From: Propionibacteriaceae bacterium
Lineage (GTDB): Bacteria > Actinomycetota > Actinomycetes > Propionibacteriales > Propionibacteriaceae
DNA length: 32,000 nt
Direction of reading: 5' to 3'
NCBI GenBank assembly: GCA_031256725.1
Contig: JAIRQE010000008.1
Location: 1-32,000, forward strand
A program made the translations under genes and the position numbers. The first letter of the stretch is position 1. The number at the start of each line of letters is the position of its first letter. Of the stretch, positions 2,532-26,031 are shown piece by piece. The notes beneath the pieces are model-generated. The model was not told the origin of the DNA. It saw only the letters and a program-made list of their open reading frames with translations, and did no database searches.

Positions 2532-4091
2532 CTAGGAGGTTTCAACTGCCGTACGCAGAACAGGGATGGCTTTCTCATAGGCTTCCAGGAACCTTGTATA
2601 ACCTTCGACATCGTCAGGATCGGGTGCGATAGTCTCAATCTGAGCATCAGCAAAGACCACACTTACCAAGAAATCAGCGAGACTGAGTTCCCGGCTATCC
2701 AGTGCATAAGAAGCAAGGACTGCCATCCCCCATGCGCCACCCTCGGCTGCAGTTTCACCAACACTGACTGGGGTTGATAGTGCGGCTGCCATCAGGGATT
2801 GGGCCACACCCTTGGTGGCGAAGATCCCACCATGGGCGAACATGGAATCGACCTCAACATTCTCAGATTCGAGGATGCGCATTCCTAGGCTCAAGGTACC
2901 AAAGGAACTCATGATCAGTGTTCTCATGAAGTTTGCGAGGTTGAGTTTCGAGTCCGGAGTACGCAGAATCAGCGGTCTACCTTCCTCCAAGCCTGTGATC
3001 GGCTCACCTGCGAGATAGTTGTATGCGAGGATCCCCCCGCCGTCCTTATCACCGTCAAGTGCTGCCCCGAATAGTGTCGCAAAGACCTGGTTGGTGTCGA
3101 GTTCGCATCCGGCCTTCGCCGCAAACTGACTGAAAATCTGAGCCCAGGCATCAATCTCCGATGCGCCATTATTGCAATGCACCATGGCGACAGGATCCCC
3201 TGCAGGTGTGGTCACCATATCGATCTCTGGATGAAGATCAGCCAACTCTCGTTCGAGGACAATCATGGCGAAGATAGAGGTACCCGCCGAGATATTTCCG
3301 GTACGCGGGGCCACTGCATTGGTGGCAACCATTCCCGTACCAGCATCTCCTTCAGGGGGACATAGGGGAATACCTGCTTGAAGGACGCCAGCTGGATCAA
3401 GGAGGAGCGCTCCTTCGGCGGTCAAGATTCCTGCGTCTGCGCCGGCGTCGCGTACCTCTGGAAGGATCCCAGCCAGGGTGATACCGGCACCTGCTGCATC
3501 CAGCTTGGCTTGGGTTTTTCCTAAGCGCGGCCCATCCCACCCATGGGCCGCATCAATGGGAAAGACTCCCGAAGCATCGCCCACTCCTAGGATTTTCTCG
3601 CCGGTCAGCTTCCAATGGACGTACCCAGACAAGGTGGTCAGGAAACTAATCTGCGAAACATGGGGTTCGCCGTTCAGTACAGCCTGATAGAGGTGGGCGA
3701 TCGACCACCTTTGAGGAATCGTGAACCCAAGTTCCTTGGTCAACTCCTCACTGGCATGGTGAGTGATGGTGTTGCGCCAAGTACGGAAAGGCACCAAGAG
3801 TTCACCTGTTTCATTGAAGGCAAGGTACCCATGCATCATCGCGGAGATTCCAATAGTGGACACCGAGGTGAGGGCTGTTCCTGTGGCCTTCTTATACTCC
3901 TCGGCTAGGCGAGCATACGCCTTCTGTACCCCTGCCCAGGCATCCTCTAAGGCATAGGACCAGATCCCGTCAACCAAGTGGTTTTCCCATGTATGGGACC
4001 CCACCGCAATGACATCCATAGACTCATTAATGATCACAGCCTTGATGCGAGTCGATCCGAACTCGATACCCAGTGAATACCGCTCAGTCAT
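2532..4091 (-). CDS. araB: Ribulokinase (FGGY carbohydrate kinase family)
   Basis: FGGY-type N-terminus (YSLGIEFGSTRIKAV) and first position in the ara operon. I moved the start to MTERY (ATG at 4091) because GGAGG sits 5 nt upstream; the track start is 4103. Confidence 0.85.
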   Translation of the reverse strand: MTERYSLGIEFGSTRIKAVIINESMDVIAVGSHTWENHLVDGIWSYALEDAWAGVQKAYARLAEEYKKATGTALTSVSTIGISAMMHGYLAFNETGELLVPFRTWRNTITHHASEELTKELGFTIPQRWSIAHLYQAVLNGEPHVSQISFLTTLSGYVHWKLTGEKILGVGDASGVFPIDAAHGWDGPRLGKTQAKLDAAGAGITLAGILPEVRDAGADAGILTAEGALLLDPAGVLQAGIPLCPPEGDAGTGMVATNAVAPRTGNISAGTSIFAMIVLERELADLHPEIDMVTTPAGDPVAMVHCNNGASEIDAWAQIFSQFAAKAGCELDTNQVFATLFGAALDGDKDGGGILAYNYLAGEPITGLEEGRPLILRTPDSKLNLANFMRTLIMSSFGTLSLGMRILESENVEVDSMFAHGGIFATKGVAQSLMAAALSTPVSVGETAAEGGAWGMAVLASYALDSRELSLADFLVSVVFADAQIETIAPDPDDVEGYTRFLEAYEKAIPVLRTAVETS

Positions 4092-4234
4092 GAAAACCTC
4101 CACAATGCCCTTGTCGATATCCTAGTCACCATAGACCCTATTTTCCCCATGTGTCTGGATTCACGACCCTACGTGGATCTGCATAGATCAGCCCACATGA
4201 CACAGTAGTGCAGAACTCAACAATTCTTATCTTA

Positions 4235-4250
4235 ATGTTAACGCTAACAT
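4235..4250. promoter_or_regulatory. Candidate LacI-family operator (imperfect 16-bp palindrome ATGTTAACGCTAACAT)
   Basis: 14 of 16 positions are self-complementary around a central CG. It lies in the divergent araB/regulator intergenic region. Confidence 0.55.
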
Positions 4251-4380
4251 GTCTGAAGTGTCAAGAGAATTCCCATGAAGCATCCTGGAGTTTTCACCTG
4301 CCGACAAGGAGATTGAATCATCAGCACAGTGATCGTGAACACTGCCCCTATTCTTTCCAAAAAAGTCCTAAACTGAAGGT

Positions 4381-5394
4381 ATGGAGGCATCTCGCACATC
4401 ACCTACAATTGCCGATGTCGCGGCCCTGGCTGGGGTCTCCCACCAGACCGTATCTCGGGTACTCAACAACCATCCCTCAGTGTCGGCGAAGACCCGCCAC
4501 AAAGTGAGGGAAACCATTGCAACCTTGGGGTATCGCCGCAACCTCGCTGCACGTACCCTCGCCACGGGGAATAGCCGCATTATTGGTGTCATGGTTACGA
4601 GTACCCATCTCTCCGGCCCGTCAGGATCCCTGCTCGCTATCGAGCAGACAGCGCGAGCACAAGGATATTGGGTCTCTATGGCAGGCATTCAAGGAGGGGA
4701 ACCAGATGAGGTACTTGAGGTCATCTCCCACTTTATTGACCAGGGAGTGGATGGGATCATCGCTGTTGTCCAAACCCAAACAGCAGTCGATGCCACCATC
4801 AAGGCATCCGGCGGGATGCCCACTGTACTGGTCACCTCCGGCGTTGTGCCAGACAACCTTCCCTCAGTGGATATCGACCAGTACACAGGCGCCAAACAGG
4901 CGATGACCATTCTCAAAGGCCTAGGTCACACAAATATTGCCCATGTCTCGGGCCCGTGTGATGACCTCCATTCAGAGTTACGTGCAGCCGCTTGGCGAAG
5001 TTCCCTGCCTCCCAGCGTCTCCAATCAAGGGATCATCTTTGAAGGGGATTGGAACTCATGGTCAGGATACTGCTGCACAATGTCACTACTGGCCCTAGAA
5101 GAACTGCCTACTGCTATCTTTGCTGGGAATGACCACATGGCCTTCGGGGTTCTTCGAGCCCTCAACGAACGTGGAATGAAAGTACCCCAAGACATATCAG
5201 TTGTTGGCTTTGATGATATCGGCGGAGCCGACTGTTCGATCCCTCCCTTGACAACCATTCATCAGGATCATCACGCTTTGGGACAAGCAGCCATGGAACT
5301 CGTATTAGAGGCCATTGATGGTCGGCCTGCACGCTCGGTGAAGATTCCTACTCAGTTGATTGTACGATCCTCGACTGGCGTACCTAGTCGCTAA
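4381..5394 (+). CDS. LacI-family transcriptional regulator, probable arabinose repressor
   Basis: N-terminal HTH (TIADVAALAGVSHQTVSRVLNN) followed by a periplasmic-binding-protein-like sugar-binding core. It is divergent from araBDA. Confidence 0.85.
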   Translation: MEASRTSPTIADVAALAGVSHQTVSRVLNNHPSVSAKTRHKVRETIATLGYRRNLAARTLATGNSRIIGVMVTSTHLSGPSGSLLAIEQTARAQGYWVSMAGIQGGEPDEVLEVISHFIDQGVDGIIAVVQTQTAVDATIKASGGMPTVLVTSGVVPDNLPSVDIDQYTGAKQAMTILKGLGHTNIAHVSGPCDDLHSELRAAAWRSSLPPSVSNQGIIFEGDWNSWSGYCCTMSLLALEELPTAIFAGNDHMAFGVLRALNERGMKVPQDISVVGFDDIGGADCSIPPLTTIHQDHHALGQAAMELVLEAIDGRPARSVKIPTQLIVRSSTGVPSR

Positions 5395-5456
5395 ACGACC
5401 CTTCATGTGGTCTCGTGTCCCCCTCAAGGGGTTATCCCGCACCTCACCTCATACAT

Positions 5457-6293
5457 TTATGGGGTGACCTCAAAGGTGATCTCTGGGTTGAAGGCGGCCC
5501 GTCGTACTGTTCTTCTGAAGGCAGCCAGAACAGGCAGGCCTACGAGAACGAGAAGGACTGAATTTGTGATGGCTCGACCGGTATCCCATACGGCTGTTGA
5601 GGTGATGAGGGAGAAGACCAGGAACCTGCGGAGATTGTCGATCAGTGAACCACCTGGGATATAGGCCAGTTCGGTTGTACCCACCATGGAGGGGCCGATC
5701 AGATAGGGCCAGAACCACAGGTTCATGATCATTCCGAAGAAATACGCTGTGAAGATACCATAGATCACGAGCATGAGGATCTCCCATTTCCCGCGAATCA
5801 TCCGCCCAAAGATGGAGTTGGGCAGCAATCCTGCACCCATACCGATCCATGCTGAGGCAAGCATCTGGAAGGGCATCCAGGGTCCAACACCAGCAGTGAG
5901 TAGTGCGGAAGCGAACAGGGAGGTACATCCCAAAACAAAGCCGAACCCGGGGCCAAAAACCCGTCCAGCAAGGATAAGCAGAAAGAAGACGGTCTCTATT
6001 CCACCTGTACCTGCTCCCAAGGGTCGAAGGGCAGCATTGATCGCGCTTAGTACCCCCAGGATCGCCAACGCTTTAGCATCCATCCCCTTTTCGGAGATCT
6101 GAGCCAGTACAAGGAAAACCAAGAGCGGCAAAATAGCGATGAAGATAAATGGGGAGGTGGAGACCATCCCATCCTCGACCCGTACAGGAATGAGCAAGGG
6201 CCACGAGAACATAGCCAGCCCTGCCACCGTGAGGATGGTGAGCATGAGGGCAGACTTCCACTCAAGGGGTACTGGGTTATGGATCTGGTTCAC
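5457..6293 (-). CDS. ECF transporter substrate-specific (S) component, substrate unknown (corrinoid inferred from context)
   Basis: 278-aa polytopic hydrophobic protein. It is the last gene of the operon and overlaps the ATPase stop by 4 nt. Confidence 0.75.
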   Translation of the reverse strand: MNQIHNPVPLEWKSALMLTILTVAGLAMFSWPLLIPVRVEDGMVSTSPFIFIAILPLLVFLVLAQISEKGMDAKALAILGVLSAINAALRPLGAGTGGIETVFFLLILAGRVFGPGFGFVLGCTSLFASALLTAGVGPWMPFQMLASAWIGMGAGLLPNSIFGRMIRGKWEILMLVIYGIFTAYFFGMIMNLWFWPYLIGPSMVGTTELAYIPGGSLIDNLRRFLVFSLITSTAVWDTGRAITNSVLLVLVGLPVLAAFRRTVRRAAFNPEITFEVTP

Positions 6294-8029
6294 CAGGAGA
6301 CCTCAGATTCATACCCTCTGGGATCGTGTACGCCGTCATCATGGGAGTCTTCCAAATTCAGTGCTTGACCAACCTGATAGGCAGTCAACCAGCGCTCTGG
6401 ATATAACACCTTGGCAACCTGGGGTGCGAATAAGGCCGAGGTACCAAGTACCTCAGGAGCCGTACCAGATTGGATCACCTCCCCGGCAGCCATGACAATG
6501 ATCTGGTCTGCAACCTCAGCAGCAAATTCCACATCGTGGGTCACTACCCCAACACTTCTCCCCTCCCAGGCCATCTCCTCAAGGATCTGGGCCAGTGATG
6601 CCTTGGCGGGGTAATCAAGTCCGCGAGTGGGCTCATCCAAGAGGATCACATGGGGCCGGGCTGTGAGTTGTATCGCGAGCACCAAACACAGTTGCTGACC
6701 CTGGGATAGATCCCTCGGATGGCTTCGAGAATCAACCTGAGGAGCCAGAGCATCAAGGATTTGCCGACACAACCCCGACTCGCATCCCGATTCCCTATCG
6801 GCAGCCTGGCATTCCTCTTCCACGCTTGACAGGTACAGCAGGTCACACGCGGTTTGAGGTACAAGACGTACGAGGTCACGTACCTTGTCTGGCCCCTTGT
6901 TTTCCAGGTCAATCCCATCGACGGAATACCGACCGGAGTCCATCTTTTGCACCCCTGTCAAAGCCCACAACAGACTGGACTTTCCTGAACCATTTCGACC
7001 CATGATGACAGTGATCTTGCCTGGGGGGAGGCTGAGTGAGACATTATTAACCGCGCATGTATGTCCGTACATTATCCGTACATTCTTAGTGGTGAGACCA
7101 TCCGATTCGATGGCCTCCAGTCGCTGGGTACCTGATGGTTTCAATGAAGGATCAGCCAGACGTACAGAGGATCTCCCCTGGGCAGGAGGGACACGGCGAA
7201 AGCGACCAGGGTCCTTCGTGACCAGTGCTGCGCGTATCGGATCAGCCATCCGTCGGGCATCACGTACCGATAAGGGGACCTCAGGAAAGGAGGCTATTCG
7301 ACCCAAGGCAACCACAGGTGGTACCAAGGAACTCGCCTCCATGATCAAGCGGGTCTCCCCCTGGGTAACCCCACCACGCCCATCAAGGAGGAGCATTTGA
7401 TCAGCATATCCAGCAACCCTCTCCAAACGATGCTCGGCGATGATGACTGTGAGACCAAGATCATGGACCAGCCTCAACAAAGCAGCAAGTACCTCCTCCG
7501 ATGAGACCGGATCAAGGGCCGACGTGGGCTCGTCAAGAACAAGTACCCTTACTCCCGTAGCGAGAACAGAACCGACGGCGACCCGTTGCTGCTGACCACC
7601 TGAGAGGGTTCTCAAAGGGCGATTGCGAAGATCGGCAAGACCAAGAATGTCAAGAGTCTCCTCCACCCGTGTCCTCATCTGTTGAGGATCAATCCCAAGC
7701 TGCTCCATTCCATAGGCCAACTCCTCCTCCACGATGTCGGTCACGAAACCAGCGAGAGGATTCTGATTGACAACCCCAATCACATGGGCCAAGTCACGGG
7801 GAGGATGCTGGGCAGTATCAAGCCCCTCAACCTCGACGCGACCAGTCACAATCCCACCAGTGAAATGGGGTACATGCCCATTGATGGCACCCAGGAGGGT
7901 GGATTTCCCTGACCCAGTACGACCCGCCACAAGGATGAGTTGACCATCAGCCAACTCCAAGTTGATGTCACGGATCACAGGCTCCTGGTCGACCCCATAC
8001 CGTATTGATACAGAATCAAAGCGAATCAT
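6290..8029 (-). CDS. Fused ECF/ABC ATPase (EcfA-EcfA' type, two ABC cassettes)
   Basis: Two Walker A motifs (GRTGSGKST, GRNGSGKSS), two signature motifs (LSGGQQQRV, LSQGQQLCL) and two Walker B motifs (LVLDEPTS, ILLDEPTR). Confidence 0.9.
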   Translation of the reverse strand: MIRFDSVSIRYGVDQEPVIRDINLELADGQLILVAGRTGSGKSTLLGAINGHVPHFTGGIVTGRVEVEGLDTAQHPPRDLAHVIGVVNQNPLAGFVTDIVEEELAYGMEQLGIDPQQMRTRVEETLDILGLADLRNRPLRTLSGGQQQRVAVGSVLATGVRVLVLDEPTSALDPVSSEEVLAALLRLVHDLGLTVIIAEHRLERVAGYADQMLLLDGRGGVTQGETRLIMEASSLVPPVVALGRIASFPEVPLSVRDARRMADPIRAALVTKDPGRFRRVPPAQGRSSVRLADPSLKPSGTQRLEAIESDGLTTKNVRIMYGHTCAVNNVSLSLPPGKITVIMGRNGSGKSSLLWALTGVQKMDSGRYSVDGIDLENKGPDKVRDLVRLVPQTACDLLYLSSVEEECQAADRESGCESGLCRQILDALAPQVDSRSHPRDLSQGQQLCLVLAIQLTARPHVILLDEPTRGLDYPAKASLAQILEEMAWEGRSVGVVTHDVEFAAEVADQIIVMAAGEVIQSGTAPEVLGTSALFAPQVAKVLYPERWLTAYQVGQALNLEDSHDDGVHDPRGYESEVSW

Positions 8030-9311
8030 CGTTCCCCCTCACGCAAATCTCCCCACTGTTCACCCCAAGCGGTGAAAACCCCCTCAAAACCATCGCATTA
8101 TGATGCTGAGTGACGGAAATGGATGGGTTTTCACCCCAATTCTCGCCATGATGCAACCCAAACCCACCATTTTGTGTATCCGCACCCAGAAAACCGACGG
8201 ATTTATGGGGGTTTTCCACCACTCGCGTTGAAGGAGTCTCAGCAGGGGGACTCATGAATGCAGGAAGAAGGAGCACAACGATGGTACCAATGGCGAGAAT
8301 ACTCACATCCGGCCATCCAAGAGGAGACACAGGAGGGAAGGCCACCATCGGTTGAAAGATACCAAGGATGAGGATCCCCACACAGGCAGCTACCCCCGAC
8401 CCGAGGACCAACCACTCAGCAGCCAGCATCGTGTCAGGACGGTACCTACTCCTGACGACTCGCCGACCTGAGAGTCTCAACCCAACCAGCCCAGCAACAA
8501 GACCAAAAACCACCATGGGTACCCCCATCCACAGTGGCGTGAACCCGGTATCCAACAATCCATAGGCACCCACACACAATGCCAGGGATGACACGACAAG
8601 CAGCACAGATGTCAACCGTCGAGAGAACACCGACACCGCCATTGACCTCCCATAGCCACGCGAATCCATGGCAGCAGCCAGGACCAGGGAGCGGTCCAAC
8701 CCATCCGAGAGTACAGGCATCGCCACGTTCTTGATCAGATGGGCCCCCTTTCCTGTCTCTGCACGAAGTTGTCGGGCCCTTCGTACCCTTCCAAAAGACT
8801 CAGCCAACTGGGGAAAGATCGATAAGGCGATGACCACCACTGTCCCCCACTCATAGAGCGCACCTGGTACGGCAGCCAAAAGTCGCTTCGGGTTCGCCAA
8901 AGCGTTCGCAGCACCAATAGCCACAACCATTGCCGCCAACTGTAGAGCCGAGATTCCAGCACCCAAGAGCGCCTCCGCAGAAACCGGACCAAAGAGTCTG
9001 ACAGAATCCAGAATTCCTGGAAGAGTCAGTGTTGGAAGATGGAAGAGAACAGTGGGTCCCTGCGCCGAGAACACGATCCTCAACAGGATACGTATAGTCA
9101 CAATGAAGCATGCAAGATAGACATAAAGCCTAAAAGCCATAGCCCAGGGCGCACTTCCACGACGCAGGATCACCGTCAAAAAAACGACAGAGATAAGCAG
9201 CCCAAGGATCGCTGGATTTGTTGTACGTGACGCGACGACCGCGCATCCAATAGCCCATGCCCACCATGCACCTGGGTGCAAGGATCTAGGAGTAAGGAGT
9301 CGAAGGGCCAT
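8016..9311 (-). CDS. ECF transporter transmembrane (T) component, EcfT/CbiQ family, with an unusual C-terminal tail
   Basis: Multi-TM protein with the coupling-helix motif AAMDSRGYG. I moved the start to MALRLL (9311), which removes a 91-nt overlap with the upstream gene; the track start is 9407. The last ~75 aa are non-hydrophobic and rich in G, H and N. Confidence 0.8.
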   Translation of the reverse strand: MALRLLTPRSLHPGAWWAWAIGCAVVASRTTNPAILGLLISVVFLTVILRRGSAPWAMAFRLYVYLACFIVTIRILLRIVFSAQGPTVLFHLPTLTLPGILDSVRLFGPVSAEALLGAGISALQLAAMVVAIGAANALANPKRLLAAVPGALYEWGTVVVIALSIFPQLAESFGRVRRARQLRAETGKGAHLIKNVAMPVLSDGLDRSLVLAAAMDSRGYGRSMAVSVFSRRLTSVLLVVSSLALCVGAYGLLDTGFTPLWMGVPMVVFGLVAGLVGLRLSGRRVVRSRYRPDTMLAAEWLVLGSGVAACVGILILGIFQPMVAFPPVSPLGWPDVSILAIGTIVVLLLPAFMSPPAETPSTRVVENPHKSVGFLGADTQNGGFGLHHGENWGENPSISVTQHHNAMVLRGFSPLGVNSGEICVRGNDDSL

Positions 9312-9316
9312 GGTAG

Positions 9317-10258
9317 TTATGCTACGCCCGAGCGACGTCGATACCACACGATGCCCGCTACCACACCGTTTGCCAGGATCAACCCCAGGGCAAGGATCAC
9401 ACCCCACGGTACTCCCCCAGACTTCTCATCAGGAACCTCAGTTTCTCTGGGCGAAAGTTGGGCAGAAGAAGGGGTACCAGCAGTCGAGGCAGTGGCAGTC
9501 ACCACGCTCGGTGACACTGAATCCGTTGGAGTCTCACGAGACTGGGTTGGATGATCGCCTGCGGTTGTATCTGAAGCTGGTTTAGCTCCCTGGGTACTTG
9601 ATGGCTTCACCACAGGTGGATGAGAGGTCACTGGGGGCGGCGGTGGCGGTGGCGGTGGGGCTTCGGTGGTCGGAGGCTTCGGAGGATCCGCCCAGAATGC
9701 AGGAGAAATCCCTGGTCTCGGTCCAGAGCCAAAGGCAGCACCAAGGGCAAAAGACCATCCCTCGTAGCTTCCGAACTTTACACGTCGACTGTTCGCTCCC
9801 TGACTCGAATAAGTCCAGGATCCTCCTGCATCCGCATGCCAATAGACCCAGTAAGCTGACCCAGGAGGTGTGTTCACGCAGGACTCCATGTAGGACTCAC
9901 CATTGGGCAGGGTTATCGACTCTGAAGGGCCTGGGCGGTTGTTGATCCGGCACACGAAACTGCCTCCATCATGGGTGGTCCCCTGAACAGAAGCAACCGT
10001 TCTCAAAACATCCATACCCGTAGAACCATTCGCCAGATTTGAGACACAGTACTGCAAGGTTCCCCCACCAAGACTCTGGTAGTCGATCACTATAGAAACC
10101 GCATTCGCGTCATTGGTCAAGCATGGACCTGTACGTACGCTTGCCGCCGAGGCCTGGGGTACAACCTCCCAAGCCTCGGACACAAAAAGGGTACTGGTGG
10201 CGACCATGATAGTCGCCACCGTACCTAGAAGGATTCTTCTCACGGAAGTACGACCCAC
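9317..10258 (-). CDS. Secreted, C-terminally membrane-anchored protein with a DUF4430-like domain
   Basis: Signal peptide (MGRTSVRRILLGTVATIMVATSTLFV..ASA). The globular domain (AVSIVIDYQSLGG..YWVYWHADAGGSWTYSSQGA..GSYEGWSFA) is followed by a poly-Pro linker and a Ser/Thr/Pro-rich stalk. The C-terminal TM helix is followed by RRRS. Confidence 0.6.
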   Translation of the reverse strand: MGRTSVRRILLGTVATIMVATSTLFVSEAWEVVPQASAASVRTGPCLTNDANAVSIVIDYQSLGGGTLQYCVSNLANGSTGMDVLRTVASVQGTTHDGGSFVCRINNRPGPSESITLPNGESYMESCVNTPPGSAYWVYWHADAGGSWTYSSQGANSRRVKFGSYEGWSFALGAAFGSGPRPGISPAFWADPPKPPTTEAPPPPPPPPPVTSHPPVVKPSSTQGAKPASDTTAGDHPTQSRETPTDSVSPSVVTATASTAGTPSSAQLSPRETEVPDEKSGGVPWGVILALGLILANGVVAGIVWYRRRSGVA

Positions 10259-12012
10259 CTCCGCAAGGCGACCCCCATCAGGATGAATCCTAGGGCTGTC
10301 ACAATGCCTGGATTACCCATGGAAAGGGAACCACCTGTTGAAGCACTAGGTTTCGACACCTCCGGTTTTGAGGAATTGGCACCAGACTGCGGTTTTGAGG
10401 AATCGGCACCAGACTGGTTCCCGGTCGGTGGGTCCAGGGTGGATGAAGGATCAGCCGGAGGATCAGACTCGCAGGATTCCCTCACAGGGAGATCTGTTTC
10501 AATCCCCTCAGCAGTCAGATTTTCAAAGCCAGGCCCGCCCAATCCAAGAACTGCTTGAACAGTGGCACGTACGAATTGGGATGTACTCGATTCGATGCCC
10601 TCATCCACACCTTGAGAAAAGGTTTCTGGATTATACGCAATAGCGCCGAGGTCTGCTTCGGTGAGTTTTCCTGTACTTGCTTCGATTGATGTACAACTCA
10701 CCTGAAGGGTCCCAATGAAGCGGACAGCCCCCTCAAGGACAGCAGTATTTCCATGGAGTGCTTGGGATCCAAGACCCGTACTATTCGCATTGGGCGCACC
10801 AAAGGCTGAGAATCCACCCGAGGATTCCTGCTTGGAGATGAGCCATTGTTCAGCCATAGCATATTCGGGAGAACCCGAGGCACCCGAGGCTTGTAGCGCC
10901 TGAAGTACCATAGCTGTCATATCAATATCGGCTCCGCCGCAGCCTGAAGACCAGCCAAAGGAACCGTCGGTGGAGCACTGTCGACCAAGGATCCACTGAG
11001 TTGCCTGAACGGGTACACCACCATCAGTTCTCGCCAAGGCCAACATGGCCAAAGAATGATTGAACGAGGAATCCGATCCAGGATTACCGAAAGACCCGTC
11101 AGCATTCATAACTGAGCGAATCTCGAAGAGCAGGTTGCGACCATCGAAAGATGTGGGGTCCTCACCAGCCACCATCAAGGCCAAGGCCACTTTGGCGGCC
11201 CGCGCCCAGCGTGTACCAATCTCGGAACTGCTTCCAATGTAGGCCGAGCCTGAAGCCTTGAGCTTGGCGGCAGTCTTCGAAAGTTGGGTACCACCCACCC
11301 CAGCTGAGGCTAGAGCGAAGATAGAATCGGTGGTCAACTCCCAGTCAACCCCTGAAAATCCTGGAATGACATCGTCGTTGTCTGCGAGTATCTGTCCCAA
11401 CCATGCTACTGCTGTTACAGCGTCGGCTGATCCTTTCGCTGTGGCTGGTGCGACCGACTTCACAGTCACACCACGATTCAGCTCGTTAAGCTTCGGGGTT
11501 GGTTCACATCGTGACGGATCATCAAGCTCCCAGGTTGGATCATAATCGAGCATCATACAATCCCAGGAATCGGCAGCTCTTAGCAGATAGGCTTGATCGA
11601 CTTTCAGTGGACCATCGCCGCCACCAATCTGGGCAAAGGTCCACGATGTGTCTGCGGGACCCGCAGCGGTACCTGTTGTTGTTGATGTGAACATCTCCCA
11701 GTAGCCATCCCAGCTACCGTAGATCTTAGATGGGTTCACACCATCAATCTCGGTAACGAATCCGCTTGCATGGGTGACAGTGAACCCTGCTCCAGTTACG
11801 GCATCAACGATACTTGGCCATGTACCAGGGGCACATCGTACCTCTACGTCAGAGCCATTCGGCGAATAATCAACAATGACAGTCACACCCTGACCGGGCT
11901 GACATGCTGCTCCACGAACAGCATCAGCGTGGGCGATACCTGGTATAGTGAAACAGAAGAGGGAAAAGAAAAGGGCGGTCGTAATGCCGACGGCCCCCAA
12001 ACGAGTTTTCAT
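10240..12012 (-). CDS. Secreted, anchored protein: DUF4430-like N-domain plus prenyltransferase/terpene-cyclase-like alpha/alpha-toroid repeats
   Basis: From MKTRLGAVG.. (12012) the N-terminus is a clean signal peptide ending AHADA. The N-domain reads VTVIVDYSPNG..GYWEMF..WTFAQIG. Repeats of the type WILGRQCSTDGSFGW and WLISKQESSGGFSAF follow. The C-terminal TM helix ends in RR. The track start at 12072 would run into the riboswitch. Confidence 0.65.
   Translation of the reverse strand: MKTRLGAVGITTALFFSLFCFTIPGIAHADAVRGAACQPGQGVTVIVDYSPNGSDVEVRCAPGTWPSIVDAVTGAGFTVTHASGFVTEIDGVNPSKIYGSWDGYWEMFTSTTTGTAAGPADTSWTFAQIGGGDGPLKVDQAYLLRAADSWDCMMLDYDPTWELDDPSRCEPTPKLNELNRGVTVKSVAPATAKGSADAVTAVAWLGQILADNDDVIPGFSGVDWELTTDSIFALASAGVGGTQLSKTAAKLKASGSAYIGSSSEIGTRWARAAKVALALMVAGEDPTSFDGRNLLFEIRSVMNADGSFGNPGSDSSFNHSLAMLALARTDGGVPVQATQWILGRQCSTDGSFGWSSGCGGADIDMTAMVLQALQASGASGSPEYAMAEQWLISKQESSGGFSAFGAPNANSTGLGSQALHGNTAVLEGAVRFIGTLQVSCTSIEASTGKLTEADLGAIAYNPETFSQGVDEGIESSTSQFVRATVQAVLGLGGPGFENLTAEGIETDLPVRESCESDPPADPSSTLDPPTGNQSGADSSKPQSGANSSKPEVSKPSASTGGSLSMGNPGIVTALGFILMGVALRRWVVLP
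10364..10417. repeat. 27-bp tandem duplication inside the CDS (2 copies, 2 mismatches)
   Basis: GGTTTTGAGGAATTGGCACCAGACTGC followed by GGTTTTGAGGAATCGGCACCAGACTGG. These encode the QSGADSSKP/QSGANSSKP stalk repeats. Confidence 0.9.
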
Positions 12013-12084
12013 GAAGAATCTCTCTATGAGCGATCCGAAAGGAACGCCAAGAAAACTCAGACGCCCCTCCACAGACCTCGATGG

Positions 12085-12235
12085 ATGGAAACGCTCCTCA
12101 CCACACAGGCATCGGACTCATCAACAATCGTTGATCTACCGTTGCGGGTCAGTGTCGGGCTTTGACCGACTTCCCCTGAATGGTTCGGTATTCAATTGTG
12201 CCGCTCACTCTAGCACAGTACAATCCCACGCAAAA
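12085..12235 (-). promoter_or_regulatory. Cobalamin (B12) riboswitch
   Basis: The minus strand reads CAGGGGAAGTCGGTCAAAGCCCGACACTGACCCGCAACGGTA (12139-12180). This matches the conserved GGGAA..GGT..AA..CC..CTG.CCCGC core. A variable hairpin ATCAAC/GTTGAT follows. A B12-box-like GAGTCCGATGCCTGTG (12103-12119) sits directly upstream of the operon start. The outer boundaries are approximate. Confidence 0.72.
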
Positions 12236-12538
12236 CAATCACAGGATGTTGATTCAATTTAAATATCAGTAATAGCAATTGGGGTAGGTCCCGCAAGCTC
12301 CTCACTATGGATCGATTCCCTGTCACACATGGGCATTCGTACCGCAAAGCCAGTTACTACGATACATCGTTTACTCTTTCTATTGCGATGCACCCAATCA
12401 TTAAATATTTATAGCATTATTGGAAATTGCTCCTTTCGGCTTCTAGAAAGCACAAAATTCACTAGCCGAAAGATGCATATTGCGAAGAAAAGTAACTAGG
12501 CTTGTTAACGAACTCTTAGCATGTACATCATCACCATC

Positions 12539-12553
12539 TTCTCACGACAGCAT
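12539..12553. repeat. 15-bp direct repeat flanking the IS (left copy), probable target-site duplication
   Basis: TTCTCACGACAGCAT is identical to 13883-13897 and directly abuts IRL. Confidence 0.7.
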
Positions 12554-12562
12554 TGTCTTGGT

Positions 12563-12631
12563 TCGGGACATAGGAAACCCCTGTCTCGGGACATAGGAAA
12601 CTGATGTGTCGGGACATAGGAAACGCGACGA
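12563..12631 (+). repeat. Three tandem 23-bp units, each carrying the 16-bp IR core TCGGGACATAGGAAAC
   Basis: The core sits at 12563-12578, 12586-12601 and 12609-12624. Only one copy is present at the right end (13858-13873, inverted). Confidence 0.9.
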
Positions 12632-12638
12632 TGGGTGA

Positions 12639-13847
12639 ATGTCTATCGCGAAACTAGTCATCACTGCCGTCATTGTTCAAGGACTCACTCAGTCTGAAGC
12701 CGCCAGCAAGTACGGGGTCTCAAAAGGATGGGTGTCCAAACTGATGGCCCGATACAGAGCGGAAGGCGAGACTGCATTCCAGCCGAAGTCCACGCGTCCT
12801 CACACCTCACCCAACGTTACATCCGACACCACGACCACAACCATCGTCACGATCCGAACCGACCTTGTTAACAGAGGTCTCGACGCTGGACCAGAAACGA
12901 TCCGTTGGCACCTGGAACATCACCACCACATGATCGTGTCCAGAGCGACGATCGCAAGGATCCTCACCCGCGAAGGTCTCGTGGCACCCGAACCCAGGAA
13001 ACGTCCGAAAACCTCGTACACTCGTTTCGAAGCCGCTCAACCCAACGAATGCTGGCAATCCGACTTCACCCACTACAGGCTCACCCACCCAGACGGACAA
13101 CCCGGCCCCGACACCGAAATCCTCACCTGGCTCGACGACCACTCCCGCTACGCCTTATCCGTCACCGGACACATCCGAGTCACCGCACCAATCGTCTTAG
13201 CCACATTCCGTCACACGATCAGCCTCTACGCTCCACCAGCGTCCACCCTGACCGACAACGGCATGGTCTACACCACCCGATTCTCCGGTGGGAAAGGCGG
13301 ACGCACCAGCTTCGAGAAAGAACTCCAGAAACTCCACATCATCCAGAAGAACGGGCACCCCAACCACCCTCAAACCCAGGGCAAAGTCGAACGATTCCAA
13401 CAAACCCTGAAGAAATGGTTACGCGCTCAACCGCACCAGCCCGCCACACTGACCGAACTACAATCTCTTCTTATTGCTTTCACTGATGAATACAACAACC
13501 GGCGCCCGCATAAATCATTGCCCCACCACCAGACTCCCGCGACCCGATACACCACCGGGATGAAAGCCAGTCCAGCCAACAACCCACCACCCGAATCTCA
13601 CAACCGTGTCCGCTACGACAAAGTCGACACATCCGGACGAGTCACCCTCCGCCACGCTGGACAACTCCACCACATCGGCATCGGACGAACCCACACCGGA
13701 ACCCTCGTCACCATGCTCATCCAAGACCTTCAGATCACAATTATCAACACCGCCACTGGAGAAATACTGCGCGACCTCATCCTCGACCCCACCAGGGATT
13801 ACCAACCCCACACCCAAAAACAACAAACCAGCGAACCCGCAATCTGA
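12639..13847 (+). CDS. IS481-family DDE transposase (rve integrase core)
   Basis: N-terminal HTH (GLTQSEAASKYGVSKGWVSKLMARYRAEGE) and rve-type catalytic region (WQSDFT.., LDDHSRY.., LTDNGMVYT.., HPQTQGKVERF). Confidence 0.9.
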   Translation: MSIAKLVITAVIVQGLTQSEAASKYGVSKGWVSKLMARYRAEGETAFQPKSTRPHTSPNVTSDTTTTTIVTIRTDLVNRGLDAGPETIRWHLEHHHHMIVSRATIARILTREGLVAPEPRKRPKTSYTRFEAAQPNECWQSDFTHYRLTHPDGQPGPDTEILTWLDDHSRYALSVTGHIRVTAPIVLATFRHTISLYAPPASTLTDNGMVYTTRFSGGKGGRTSFEKELQKLHIIQKNGHPNHPQTQGKVERFQQTLKKWLRAQPHQPATLTELQSLLIAFTDEYNNRRPHKSLPHHQTPATRYTTGMKASPANNPPPESHNRVRYDKVDTSGRVTLRHAGQLHHIGIGRTHTGTLVTMLIQDLQITIINTATGEILRDLILDPTRDYQPHTQKQQTSEPAI

Positions 13848-13882
13848 GGGTTCACCGGTTTCCTATGTCCCGAGACATCACA

Positions 13883-13897
13883 TTCTCACGACAGCAT
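13883..13897. repeat. 15-bp direct repeat flanking the IS (right copy)
   Basis: TTCTCACGACAGCAT is identical to 12539-12553 and directly abuts IRR. Confidence 0.7.
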
Positions 13898-24155: not shown

Positions 24156-24237
24156 GCCGGAGTGGTGAAATTGGCATACACGCAGGTTTTAGGTACCTGT
24201 GCCGCAAGGCGTGAGGGTTCAAGTCCCTTCTCCGGCA
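24156..24237 (+). tRNA. tRNA-Leu (anticodon TAG), class II with a long variable arm
   Basis: Manual cloverleaf: acceptor GCCGGAG/CTCCGGC, anticodon stem CAGGT/ACCTG, loop TTTAGGT, 13-nt variable arm, T-arm GAGGG-TTCAAGT-CCCTT, discriminator A. No CCA is encoded. Confidence 0.85.
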
Positions 24238-24339
24238 CCCATCACGGTAACATCATTCCATCACATTTACTCCAGATTCCGATGACGTCCATTCGATGGA
24301 TATAGATTCGTAGTTACCGTACTCGTGATACTCTGCTTT

Positions 24340-24648
24340 AAACCGTTGATAGGGAAGTAAAACCGGTAGCGCACTTACAGAGAGTCAGGGATGCTGAGAT
24401 CCTGACAGAAAGCGGGTCGGAAAAATGGGCCCTTGAGGGCTGAGGCGAAAGGCGCGAGCTTAGTAGTTTCAGACGTGTACTCACGTTACAGAGTAGAGAT
24501 GTGCTAGCATCTTAATGAGTGGGCAGCGTTCGCTGCCAAGCAGTGGTGGCACCGCAGGAGTTCAGGCTCTTGTCCCTGCAGAACAGTAGGAGACGAGGGT
24601 CTTTTTTCATTCCCGCACTCTCCTGAAGGCTCGCGAAAGGAGAGAACA
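24340..24648 (+). promoter_or_regulatory. T-box leader (apparent Trp/UGG specifier) controlling trpB2
   Basis: AGAGAG (24379-24384), distal GCTGAGA (24393-24399), GAAAAA-UGG-G (UGG at 24426-24428) and an AGTA box (~24462). The T-box sequence is CAGTGGTGGCACCGCAGG (24541-24558). A hairpin (24565-24574 paired with 24592-24601) plus T6 (24602-24607) follows, then the SD AAGGAGAG. Confidence 0.7.
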
Positions 24649-26031
24649 ATGAGCCAGAATGTACCGTACAAAACCTATCTAACCGAAGACGAGTTGCCCA
24701 CGCATTACTACAATGTGAGGGCAGACATGAAAGTCGGTCATGCCCCAATCCTGCATCCCGGCACCCTGCAACCTGTCACCGTCGCTGATATGGAGCCGAT
24801 CTTCTGTACAGAATTAGCCAAGCAGGAACTCAACACGGAAGACCGCTTCATCGAGATCCCCGAGCAGGTGCGGGCCTTCTATCGCATGTATCGGCCTTCA
24901 CCGCTTGTACGCGCCTATCACCTTGAGAAGGCACTCGGCACCCCAGCCAAGCTTTACTATAAGTACGAGGGTGGCAACACGTCAGGCAGCCACAAGCTCA
25001 ACTCAGCTATTGCCCAAGCCTATTATGCGAAAGAGCAAGGGCTAACTGGCTTGACCACCGAGACGGGCGCGGGACAATGGGGCAGCGCCTTGTCGATGGC
25101 CTGCGTGTACTTTGACCTTGAGCTTGAGGTGTACATGGTACGTGTGTCGTCCGAGCAGAAGCCCTACCGTAAGGTTCTCATGGAAACCTACGGAGCTCAG
25201 GTCATTGCCTCACCAAGTGATACGACCAGCATCGGGCGCACGATGCTCGAAAACCCCGAAAACCAGGGTGGCTCACTGGGCACAGCGATCAGTGAGGCAG
25301 TCGAGGTTGCGGTCACATCCGAGGGCAAGCGTTATGTCTTGGGTAGCGTTCTCAACCAGGTTCTCTTACATCAGTCGATCATCGGTATTGAAGCCAAGAA
25401 GGCCCTGGAGAAACTTGATGAGTATCCGGACATGGTCATTGGATGCGCTGGTGGCGGCTCTAATCTTGGCGGACTCATGTCCGCCTTCATGGAGGACAAA
25501 CTCGCAGGCAGAACAGCACCCCATTTCATTGCTGTCGAGCCAGCCTCGTGCCCGTCAATGACTCGTGGGCGTTTCGCGTACGACTTCTGTGACACTGGAC
25601 AGGTGACACCGCTTGCCAAGATGTACACCCTGGGACATGCGTTTATGCCCTCCCCCAGCCATGCTGGTGGATTGCGTTTCCATGGAATGAGCCCCATTTT
25701 AAGCCAGCTCTTCCACGATGGTTTCATCGACGAAGCTCGTGCTGTTGATCAGGTCTCGGTATTCCAGGCAGCAGAAATCTTCGCGCGCGCCGAAGGTACC
25801 TTGCCTGCCCCCGAGTCGTCTCACGCGATCCGTGCAGCCATCGACGAAGCACTCAAGTGCAAGGAAACCGGCGAGCAGAAGACAATCCTGTTCGGCTTGA
25901 GCGGCAACGGGTACTTCGACTTGGCTGCCTACCAGCAATACAACGAAGGTACCCTCACCGACCGTGTACCCACAGACGAAGATCTGGAACGCGGCCTAGC
26001 CACTATCCCCTCACTGCCAGGCATCCAGTAA
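24649..26031 (+). CDS. trpB2: TrpB-like PLP enzyme, TrpB2 subfamily (tryptophan synthase beta-like)
   Basis: 460 aa with the long N-terminal extension typical of TrpB2. The PLP-lysine context is NTSGSHKLNSAI; GGGSN and TETGAGQWG motifs are also present. Confidence 0.85.
   Translation: MSQNVPYKTYLTEDELPTHYYNVRADMKVGHAPILHPGTLQPVTVADMEPIFCTELAKQELNTEDRFIEIPEQVRAFYRMYRPSPLVRAYHLEKALGTPAKLYYKYEGGNTSGSHKLNSAIAQAYYAKEQGLTGLTTETGAGQWGSALSMACVYFDLELEVYMVRVSSEQKPYRKVLMETYGAQVIASPSDTTSIGRTMLENPENQGGSLGTAISEAVEVAVTSEGKRYVLGSVLNQVLLHQSIIGIEAKKALEKLDEYPDMVIGCAGGGSNLGGLMSAFMEDKLAGRTAPHFIAVEPASCPSMTRGRFAYDFCDTGQVTPLAKMYTLGHAFMPSPSHAGGLRFHGMSPILSQLFHDGFIDEARAVDQVSVFQAAEIFARAEGTLPAPESSHAIRAAIDEALKCKETGEQKTILFGLSGNGYFDLAAYQQYNEGTLTDRVPTDEDLERGLATIPSLPGIQ

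Follow-up and report, generated by a model that had tools for sequence, protein, structure and literature searches.

Capture of vitamin B12 at the surface of Gram-positive bacteria is poorly understood. Prokaryotic transcobalamin-like SLBB proteins were described by Burroughs, Balaji, Iyer and Aravind (2007, Biol Direct 2:4; PMC1796856); the accessible excerpts of that paper mention signal peptides and Gram-positive anchors, a toroid that can lie to either side of the domain, a second SLBB paralogue and CbiO/CbiQ neighbours, and propose B12 scavenging as the function and acquisition of animal transcobalamin from Gram-positive bacteria. The same excerpts state that the combination of toroid and beta-grasp domain binds B12 in transcobalamin. 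An energy-coupling factor (ECF)-like operon of L. sakei, lsa1836-1840, was linked experimentally to heme uptake: according to the available part of the preprint, a mutant and an overexpressing strain had altered cellular heme content (Verplaetse et al., bioRxiv 10.1101/864751). Biochemical characterisation of an ECF importer of B12 exists only for ECF-CbrT of Lactobacillus delbrueckii, whose substrates are cobalamin and cobinamide; hemin is no competitor, and the transporter has no described accessory proteins (Santos et al. 2018, eLife; PMC5997447). Here we analyse 32,000 nucleotides from the metagenome-assembled genome of a Propionibacteriaceae bacterium (contig JAIRQE010000008.1, positions 1 to 32,000; this whole stretch is referred to below as the window), containing a minus-strand operon that encodes two secreted, membrane-anchored proteins (g1 and g2) and an ECF module. 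Our analysis points, with a probability of about 0.7, to a B12-repressed surface corrinoid-capture pair feeding a dedicated ECF importer. The operon is a well-supported member of the kind predicted computationally in 2007 but never proven. It consists of the following genes, where aa stands for amino acid residues:

5457-12012, minus strand: operon of five co-directional open reading frames (ORFs), from the ORF listing; a separate gene call on the same contig agrees
10240..12012, minus strand: g1, 590 aa, secreted and membrane-anchored, with a signal peptide, a beta-grasp (SLBB) domain, a toroid, a linker and a transmembrane (TM) helix
9317..10258, minus strand: g2, 313 aa from a GTG start, with a signal peptide, an SCO2322-type beta-grasp domain, a stalk and a TM helix
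8016..9311, minus strand: ECF T component (CbiQ/EcfT), 431 aa, with about 200 aa of extra C-terminal membrane region
6290..8029, minus strand: fused ECF A-A' ATPase, 579 aa
5457..6293, minus strand: ECF S component, 278 aa, of a distinct family conserved across Actinomycetota

The gene junctions are short or overlapping, and co-transcription is therefore the natural reading: g2 and T are 5 nt apart, T and A overlap by 14 nt, A and S by 4 nt, and g1 and g2 either overlap by 19 nt or are separated by 32 nt, depending on the choice of the g2 start. Products in the separate gene call have 590, 296, 431, 579 and 278 aa; for g2 the caller favours a start at 10207, which gives 296 aa instead of 313 aa. 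The g1 ORF is extendable to an in-frame GTG at 12072 (the ORFs then span 5457-12072), and we favour as its probable start the ATG at 12012, preferred by the gene caller and by signal-peptide logic. A first-pass annotation, made from the sequence alone, had proposed this tightly packed five-gene operon, and the ORF listing and the gene call bear it out.

Two features lie in the leader of the operon:

12083..12215, minus strand: cobalamin-riboswitch aptamer, short form with a minimal P6 extension, sub-threshold with RF00174 and found with the covariance model R2 (below)
12013..12082, minus strand: leader between the aptamer and the g1 ATG, the presumed expression platform

The aptamer ends 70 nt upstream of the g1 ATG, on the same strand. 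At its gathering threshold Rfam reported a T-box and a tRNA and no cobalamin riboswitch in the 32-kb window. In a local E-value search of positions 11900-12800, RF00174 matched 12090-12213 (minus strand) with 25.4 bits (E 2.6e-4; gathering score 31.5), by far the best match; in this alignment the P6 extension of the window aptamer is shrunk from 62 to 8 nucleotides. The aptamer core GGGAAGUCGGUCAAAGCCCGACACUGACCCGCAACGGUA can be aligned, column by column, with those elements upstream of homologous operons that reach the gathering score. A covariance model constructed from the leaders of homologous operons (R1) found 116 elements in 1.22 Mb, and the model rebuilt from 39 elements with the window excluded (R2) gave one match in all 32 kb, at 12083-12215 (minus strand), with 99.8 bits and E 4.9e-31. 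Among these 39 related elements 97.6% of cells are paired and compensatory (double) changes occur in 11 of the 15 pairs; none of 500 shuffles reached the observed pairing and covariation values, and slid registers collapse. All 15 modelled pairs can form in the window aptamer and its conserved core is intact. Because the core aligns with passing elements, R2 matches the window once and the 39 relatives covary, we conclude on sequence grounds that the element is a genuine short-form aptamer of the cobalamin clan (Rfam CL00101; RF00174 and RF01482), under-called by the Rfam threshold. The cobalamin riboswitch of the first-pass annotation is thus retained, though not by the Rfam gathering score.

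As to how the riboswitch works, a terminator scan revealed no intrinsic-terminator-like site in the leader, and minimum free energy folding found the leader no more stable than its shuffles (z -0.71). Since no terminator was seen, our guess is that control is probably exerted at translation. The short P6 hints at ligand selectivity of the class-II kind. No promoter-like site was detected near the leader, the lone sigma-70-like match in 5200-12800 being located inside the S gene (5725-5753).

The link between riboswitch and operon was assessed at 79 loci encoding g2 homologues, taken from one-genome-per-species contigs of Actinomycetota; a pattern scan of the one-genome-per-species collection found at least 578 relatives. 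Operons of this type are found in several hundred Actinomycetota genomes at species level, among them those of Streptomyces, Amycolatopsis, Micromonospora, Tessaracoccus and Propionibacteriaceae. Co-occurrence with cobalamin riboswitches, a check suggested in the first-pass annotation, is near-universal, with a same-strand cobalamin-type element upstream of the g2 homologue at 75 of the 79 loci. Three of the four negative loci are short of upstream DNA (L030 and L041 have less than 1.3 kb of it, and in L065 the contig ends within the toroid gene upstream), while the fourth, L061, is a stand-alone paralogue without ECF genes. When Rfam was run at the gathering score on nine of the 79 loci, four leaders passed the Cobalamin/AdoCbl score on the operon strand (L004, 90 bits; L005, 34.5; L019, 37.2; L033, 54.1), and L019 contained a further, divergent element of 48 bits. 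An E-value rerun on four of the five loci lacking a gathering match recovered sub-threshold AdoCbl/Cobalamin elements in the leaders of L007, L010 and L013 (E 3e-4 to 0.014), and no cobalamin-type Rfam match at E<=0.1 in L012.

Gene order is also conserved: at 59 of the 79 loci T, A and S come after g2 on the same strand, and contig ends truncate several of the others. At 69 of the 79 a toroid gene could be detected, in varying arrangements, namely fused to the beta-grasp domain as in the window, within multidomain first genes of 900-1400 aa, or as separate genes. In Amycolatopsis (L019) a divergent riboswitch (4275-4406, minus strand) leads to a solo toroid gene (3240-4355, minus strand), and in Tessaracoccus (L013) a second riboswitch (12553-12621) follows the S gene and lies ahead of the toroid genes. 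That each module keeps its own riboswitch when the two are separated is the strongest evidence for placing both the beta-grasp and the toroid module in corrinoid physiology. Moreover, a metagenomic protein of 627 aa (P0173) consists of an ECF S component (residues 32-177; PF07155, PF12822) fused to a toroid (from residue 206; PF13243), a homologue of the one in g1; a fusion of this kind speaks for a physical link between toroid and transporter.

Several loci show further variations of this layout. Positions 4275-4664 of L019 form a back-to-back divergent riboswitch pair, of which the second member drives the beta-grasp and ECF operon; two or more cobalamin riboswitches are present also in L012, L015, L017 and L078. 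Two loci from metagenome-assembled genomes (MAGs) of Propionibacteriaceae, L007 (7336-8800) and L010 (7350-8440), contain a tRNA, a cobalamin-type riboswitch and a g2 homologue, with no T, A, S or toroid genes in the DNA past the g2 homologue (about 4 kb and about 8 kb, respectively). The surface beta-grasp protein can therefore be riboswitch-controlled alone.

The domains of the two surface proteins are as follows, the TM helices being taken from AlphaFold2 (AF2) models:

11563..11925, minus strand: N-terminal beta-grasp domain of g1, aa ~30-150, paralogue of the g2 domain
10453..11430, minus strand: alpha/alpha toroid of g1, aa ~195-520, from the family profile and Foldseek
10252..10305, minus strand: C-terminal TM helix of g1, aa 570-587, an AF2 helix with SASTGG before it and RR after it
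9734..10141, minus strand: beta-grasp domain of g2, aa ~40-175, transcobalamin-beta-like fold, AF2 confidence (pLDDT) >90
9407..9703, minus strand: Pro/Ser/Thr-rich low-complexity stalk of g2, aa ~186-284, from sequence, pLDDT 49-62
9329..9406, minus strand: C-terminal TM helix of g2, aa 285-310, an AF2 helix followed by RRR

Signal peptides were read at the N-termini of both g1, MKTRLGAVGITTALFFSLFCFTIPGIAHA/DAV (...IAHA/DAV), and g2, MGRTSVRRILLGTVATIMVATSTLFVSEAWEVVPQASA/ASV (...QASA/ASV). The AF2 model of g1 (pLDDT 87, predicted TM-score 0.80) comprises a beta-rich N-domain (~30-150), an all-helical barrel (~195-520), a disordered Ser/Pro-rich linker and a terminal helix (570-587). Neither protein contains a literal LPXTG motif, and a sortase-anchored (LPXTG) reading was rejected on this ground. 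The signal peptides and C-terminal anchors of the first-pass annotation, like the missing LPXTG, agree with the sequences and with the AF2 helices at 570-587 and 285-310. In the g1 family (P0122-P0146; 10252-10330 in the window) the tails show a recurring xTGG (VSTGG, PTGGS; SASTGG in g1) followed by a hydrophobic stretch and by RR, and distant members have a canonical LSATG, LPITG or LAATG where xTGG sits. The g1 tail may be a degenerate or alternative sorting signal of sortase type (class E, LAXTG-like) and not a plain membrane anchor.

The beta-grasp domains of g1 and g2 are paralogous. Comparison of trimmed family profiles by hhalign (g1 30-190 against g2 40-185) gave 99.0% probability and E 4.5e-18, so that the pattern shared by the two proteins, pointed out in the first-pass annotation, reflects real paralogy. 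In the predicted models both domains have two strands, a helix, a hairpin and three strands (g2: E54-59, E67-73, H81-88, hairpin E91-94/E98-105, later strands; g1: E42-48, E56-62, H68-74, hairpin E79-82/E85-89, later strands). As modelled, both would fit the definition of the transcobalamin-like SLBB clade, with the hairpin inserted after the helix, in the accessible text of PMC1796856. The surface context given there was found as well: the proteins are secreted and anchored, one is fused to a toroid, a second SLBB paralogue is present, and CbiO/CbiQ-type genes are neighbours. The conserved residues of g2 are C46, C71, C103, C127, W137, Y139, W140, W148, Y150, W168 and F170.

The ten best Foldseek matches of the g2 model in the PDB were all transcobalamin or intrinsic factor (7qbe_A, E 0.033; 2bb6_A, probability 0.95), and against the isolated transcobalamin (TC) beta domain 5no0 the target-normalised TM-score was 0.61. 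The fold in common with the beta domain of eukaryotic B12 carriers, which the first-pass annotation had put forward, is thereby recovered in the g2 model. At the sequence level, a PDB profile search with the g2 family returned matches to the low-complexity linker only, and hhalign against human and rat TC beta, a template of two sequences, was not significant; a homologue search with human TC beta gave 22 mostly fragmentary mammalian matches, the collection being nearly without eukaryotic sequences.

The domain had been called DUF4430-like, of which the transcobalamin-like fold stands and the family name does not. Pfam DUF4430 (PF14478, gathering score 23.8 bits) had no match in the g1 and g2 domains or the family consensus at E<=10, none in the 113 g2 relatives (E<=1) and none in the 117 distant representatives of the g1 N-domain (g1N) profile (E<=0.01). 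The nearest approach was the N-domain of a g1 relative, P0146, with 20.9 bits (E 4.8e-4) against the cut-off of 23.8; on the same scale human TC beta, verified to be identical to 5no0_A, scores 29.1 bits. On the other hand, g2 carries a precomputed PF28005 SCO2322 annotation, flagged "weak", and scores 32.4 bits with NCBIfam NF040672 SCO2322 (cut-off 85). With g2 alone as query, 205 proteins were found at E<=0.001, and most of those listed are annotated PF28005. In our reading, the g1/g2 domain belongs to a sister family, PF28005 SCO2322, with a transcobalamin-like beta-grasp fold, and is not a member of DUF4430.

Links between SCO2322 and DUF4430 are indirect. In the Propionicimonas locus L004 the protein encoded at the gene-1 position (1393 aa) combines a bona fide DUF4430 domain of 42.8 bits with FIVAR and Ig-like domains and with a toroid weakly similar to Cobalamin_bind; its gene sits between the 90-bit Cobalamin riboswitch and the g2 homologue and ECF genes. 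The g1N and g2 profiles align colinearly with this DUF4430 region (profile hidden Markov models and hhalign) at E of only 0.013-0.054, which is not significant. At E<=1e-3, 629 representatives of the g1N-type domain were found among 1.84 billion clusters; the domain is combined with CWB2, SLH, Ig-like, DUF4214, RCC1-propeller and LPXTG modules, all of them surface contexts, and both orders relative to the toroid occur. An RCC1-like beta-propeller fused to an SCO2322-type beta-grasp domain was observed in P0234 (1293 aa) and in one other distant g1N-type representative. BtuG of Bacteroides is also a propeller, and its likeness to the RCC1 fusions may be coincidence.

The alpha/alpha toroid of g1, likewise named in the first-pass annotation, is confirmed. 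The protein alone remains sub-threshold in Pfam for Prenyltrans (19.2 bits against 26.5) and for SQHop_cyclase_C, while a toroid profile of 52 relatives matched squalene-hopene cyclase (SHC) 1gsz with E 4.9e-32, and also complement and A2M thioester domains. In Foldseek the g1 toroid was placed first with single-barrel cyclases (8pak, E 2.9e-5) and RabGGTase beta, at probability 1.00, and transcobalamin appeared from rank 25 (E 1.4e-3 for 7qbg_C to 5.7e-3). As cyclases and RabGGTase beta outrank transcobalamin, the fold by itself is not B12-specific. PF01122 Cobalamin_bind had no match in g1 at E<=1; weak matches occur in relatives (E 0.11, 0.008 and 1.8e-4). NCBIfam NF053823 SCO2321 matched the toroid only, with 47.4 bits (E 1.3e-12) against an equivalog cut-off of 300, and going by this score g1 is a relative of the SCO2321 family and not an equivalog. 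The segment D362-I-D364-M365-T-A of g1 (aa 361-366, ~10915-10932) aligns with the SHC catalytic motif D374-V-D376-D377-T-A; in the 52 relatives D364 never varies, and D362 and T366 hardly do. The general-acid motif DxDD(T/S)A is not intact, its third Asp being absent in the window and not conserved in the family consensus. The D362/D364 motif may be left over from a cyclase ancestor or may contact the ligand.

The beta domain of g1 precedes the toroid, the reverse of the order in animal transcobalamin. A two-domain logic split over two proteins, as the first-pass annotation had it, does not describe the window, where g1 alone has both beta-grasp domain and toroid and g2 is an extra solo paralogue; real beta/toroid splits do occur in other genera.

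Genes 3-5 had been annotated as a complete ECF module, and each of the three passed its Pfam cut-off. The T component matches PF02361 CbiQ over residues 10-222 of 431 (34.6 bits, cut-off 25), the A-A' ATPase of 579 aa contains two ABC_tran domains (E 2.5e-50), and the S component matches PF12822 ECF_trnsprt (33.6 bits, cut-off 30.7). The best NCBIfam models for A-A' are ECF_ATPase_1 (275.6 bits) and ECF_ATPase_2 (269.2 bits), with equivalog cut-offs of 315 and 330. The C-terminal half of the T component (8016-8650) contains about 200 extra residues with several hydrophobic segments, and in the window copy also a hydrophilic tail; homologues in L004 and L033 have 394 aa and the extension length is conserved. 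At 278 aa the S component is longer than typical S components. Its homologues in 59 loci, spread over many actinobacterial families, are 53-70% identical to it; PDB searches with the sequence alone and with a profile of 19 members gave no solved S component, CbrT included, at E<=10, and no CbiM/CbiN-type match was found in Pfam or NCBIfam. An EcfT/CbiQ-type T component, two ECF-type ABC domains and an S gene in the same operon are all present, and genes 3-5 are predicted to be a dedicated (group I) ECF importer with a novel S family.

From these components the following mechanism is proposed. At low intracellular cobalamin the leader riboswitch would permit expression of the five genes, and with enough B12 it would turn them off. 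The g1 protein would be exported and held at the membrane by its C-terminal helix, with its beta-grasp domain and toroid sandwiching the corrinoid; g2 would hold a second beta-grasp domain on a stalk of ~100 residues and either capture ligand further out in the wall or relay it inward. The ligand would then pass to the dedicated S component for import energised by the T and A-A' module. A more specific, two-tier version, in which g1 is a circularly permuted "bacterial transcobalamin" that clamps the corrinoid and g2 relays it through the thick wall to a new class of B12 S components, is tentative, at slightly under even odds. Its corollary, that SCO2322 represents a second, previously unlinked lineage of B12-binding beta-grasp domains, even in B12-producing genera, falls just short of an even chance as well.

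Corrinoid capture coupled to ECF import, the central proposal of the first-pass annotation, survives all the computational tests that were named with it. Several points nevertheless weigh against it. ECF importers classically work without extracytoplasmic binding proteins. The window proteins score below the cut-offs of Pfam DUF4430 and of NCBIfam SCO2321 and SCO2322; the Foldseek E-values of g2 are weak (0.03-0.45), with ubiquitin-like beta-grasp folds close behind; the toroid is closer in Foldseek to terpene cyclases and prenyltransferase beta subunits than to transcobalamin; in roughly one of eight loci no toroid gene lies closer than 8 kb; and CbrT, the S component characterised for B12, is not related in sequence to that of the window. 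For no member of the SCO2321/SCO2322 families did the searchable literature offer evidence of binding or transport. Nor did the literature searched, a search that left Rodionov et al. 2009 and RegPrecise outside, contain a study of an actinobacterial SCO2321-2325-type system; its capture and transport function is what we infer. Finally, the only analogous operon with experiments, that of L. sakei, pointed to heme and not to B12 in the available part of the report.

This last point leads to the alternative that the operon imports heme or another tetrapyrrole and that its surface pair captures heme, as in lsa1836-1840, where heme content responded to both mutation and overexpression and where Lsa1839 and Lsa1840 resemble the beta and alpha parts of transcobalamin (bioRxiv 10.1101/864751, available part). 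We consider it unlikely: nearly every actinobacterial operon, and separate toroid genes too, lie behind riboswitches of the cobalamin clan, no heme-responsive element was seen, and orthology of the L. sakei proteins to the SCO2321/SCO2322 family is not established. Another alternative is a cobalt-ion importer under B12-riboswitch control, of the CbiMNQO kind, whose surface proteins would be metal-binding or wall accessories; the T and A components do match CbiQ and CbiO models, hosts such as Streptomyces and Amycolatopsis are B12 producers needing cobalt, and cobalamin riboswitches often control cobalt transporters, for example in C. difficile (PMC11477304). Such a function is very improbable for the window, where the S component matches the generic vitamin-type PF12822 and, in Pfam and NCBIfam, neither CbiM nor CbiN, where the folds of the accessory proteins are transcobalamin-like and not those of metal sites, and where the CbiQ/CbiO matches are generic to all ECF modules.

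The remaining two alternatives concern single parts of the operon. If g1 were an extracellular enzyme, a class II terpene-cyclase-like protein or a "peptidase" acting on envelope lipid or glycan without corrinoid binding, its best toroid matches to squalene-hopene cyclases and prenyltransferases, the two Asp of DxDDTA kept out of three (D362 and the invariant D364) and the database labels of relatives ("terpene cyclase/mutase" or "peptidase") would be explained. Yet g1 is a secreted single barrel that has lost the third catalytic-motif Asp, its toroid is fused to a transcobalamin-like beta-grasp domain, which is the B12-binding combination of transcobalamin in the excerpts of PMC1796856, stand-alone toroid genes have cobalamin riboswitches of their own, and in P0173 the toroid is fused to an ECF S component; an enzymatic role thus has only a slim chance. 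Least probable of all is that the upstream element is a decayed relic, non-functional in this genome. An Rfam score of 25.4 bits, short of 31.5, and the IS481-family transposase with its terminal repeats (~12554-13885), some 340 nt upstream, would suit decay, but the insertion lies outside the aptamer, whose core is intact, whose 15 modelled pairs can all form and which scores 99.8 bits with R2, and other short-form leaders of homologues are below the Rfam threshold too while clearly belonging to the cobalamin clan. B12-controlled corrinoid capture and import thus remains the reading we prefer.

The operon is well bounded, by a LacI-family gene on one side and an IS481-family element upstream. 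On its downstream side the LacI-family regulator gene has the opposite orientation (4381-5394, plus strand) and is followed by araB/araD/araA-type genes (minus strand). The IS481-family insertion sequence occupies 12532-13897 (plus strand), about 340 nt upstream of the aptamer, with a transposase gene at 12639-13847 (NF033577, 226.7 bits). Three tandem 23-nt sub-terminal repeats (TCGGGACATAGGAAAC...) were found at 12563-12631, with one inverted copy at 13853-13885, and the ends of the element are flanked by a 22-nt near-identical direct repeat (12532-12553 and 13876-13897). Its insertion may have cost the operon its native promoter, by displacement or replacement. Further away, a tRNA-Leu gene (anticodon tag; 24156-24239, plus strand) is directly followed by a T-box leader (24337-24580, 99.9 bits), which precedes a gene for a TrpB-like pyridoxal phosphate-dependent enzyme (24649-26031; NF009057, 671 bits). 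According to its database record, protein P0121 of a Propionibacteriaceae MAG is 100% identical to g1.

Because Burroughs et al. predicted the concept in 2007, the operon is not a new principle, and with the idea in print since then its value lies in direct testability in a genetically tractable group; it is a good experimental target of moderate interest. Should the surface proteins prove to bind corrinoids, it would follow that an ECF transporter can work with capture proteins outside the cytoplasm, that human transcobalamin has a functional analogue, and possibly a relative, in bacteria, and that the curated, function-less SCO2321 and SCO2322 families gain a testable function. Capture of this kind would bear on cobamide sharing and competition in soil and gut communities, and the two-tier version would imply widespread corrinoid salvage or competition, even in B12-producing genera.

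Among known systems, BtuG and BtuH of Bacteroides are surface lipoproteins for high-affinity corrinoid capture, encoded with a riboswitch-controlled B12 transporter. Their folds are unrelated to those of the window proteins (BtuG is a beta-propeller), and they serve a Gram-negative outer membrane with the TonB-dependent BtuB and no ECF transporter. Many hosts of the window-type operon (Streptomyces, Amycolatopsis, Propionibacteriaceae) belong to groups of B12 producers. The animal carriers transcobalamin, intrinsic factor and haptocorrin follow the same logic of toroid plus beta-grasp domain, the beta domains of transcobalamin and intrinsic factor being the best matches of g2 and transcobalamin matching also the g1 toroid. 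However, the animal proteins are soluble and toroid-first, whereas g1 and g2 are membrane-tethered, g1 is reversed and has no detectable PF01122 or DUF4430 match, and their corrinoid binding is a proposal. ECF-CbrT, like the window module, has an S component, EcfT and two ATPase domains; CbrT belongs to group II and shares a general energising module, while the module of the window is dedicated, its T component about 200 aa longer and its ATPases fused.

The operon lsa1836-1840 of L. sakei comes close in architecture, having, as the available part of the preprint describes it, five genes as in the window, for S, A-A', T and two transcobalamin-like extracellular proteins. Its beta-like Lsa1839 and alpha-like Lsa1840 are separate, whereas g1 has both domains and g2 adds a second beta-like one; it is tied to heme, with no riboswitch mentioned in that part, whereas the window operon has a cobalamin riboswitch, and the likeness is one of architecture. 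The closest description remains that of Burroughs et al. (2007), whose systems, in the accessible excerpts, share with the window the signal peptide, surface anchoring, toroid fusion, SLBB paralogue, neighbouring CbiO-like ATPase and CbiQ-like membrane protein, and the predicted role in B12 scavenging. In the same excerpts the analysis was seeded on DUF4430-type domains, with examples mostly from low-GC Gram-positives and archaea and hosts mostly without B12 synthesis, while the domain in g1 and g2 is assigned to PF28005 SCO2322, which the DUF4430 model does not detect. Riboswitch linkage, which those excerpts do not use as evidence, is part of the evidence for our reading of the window.

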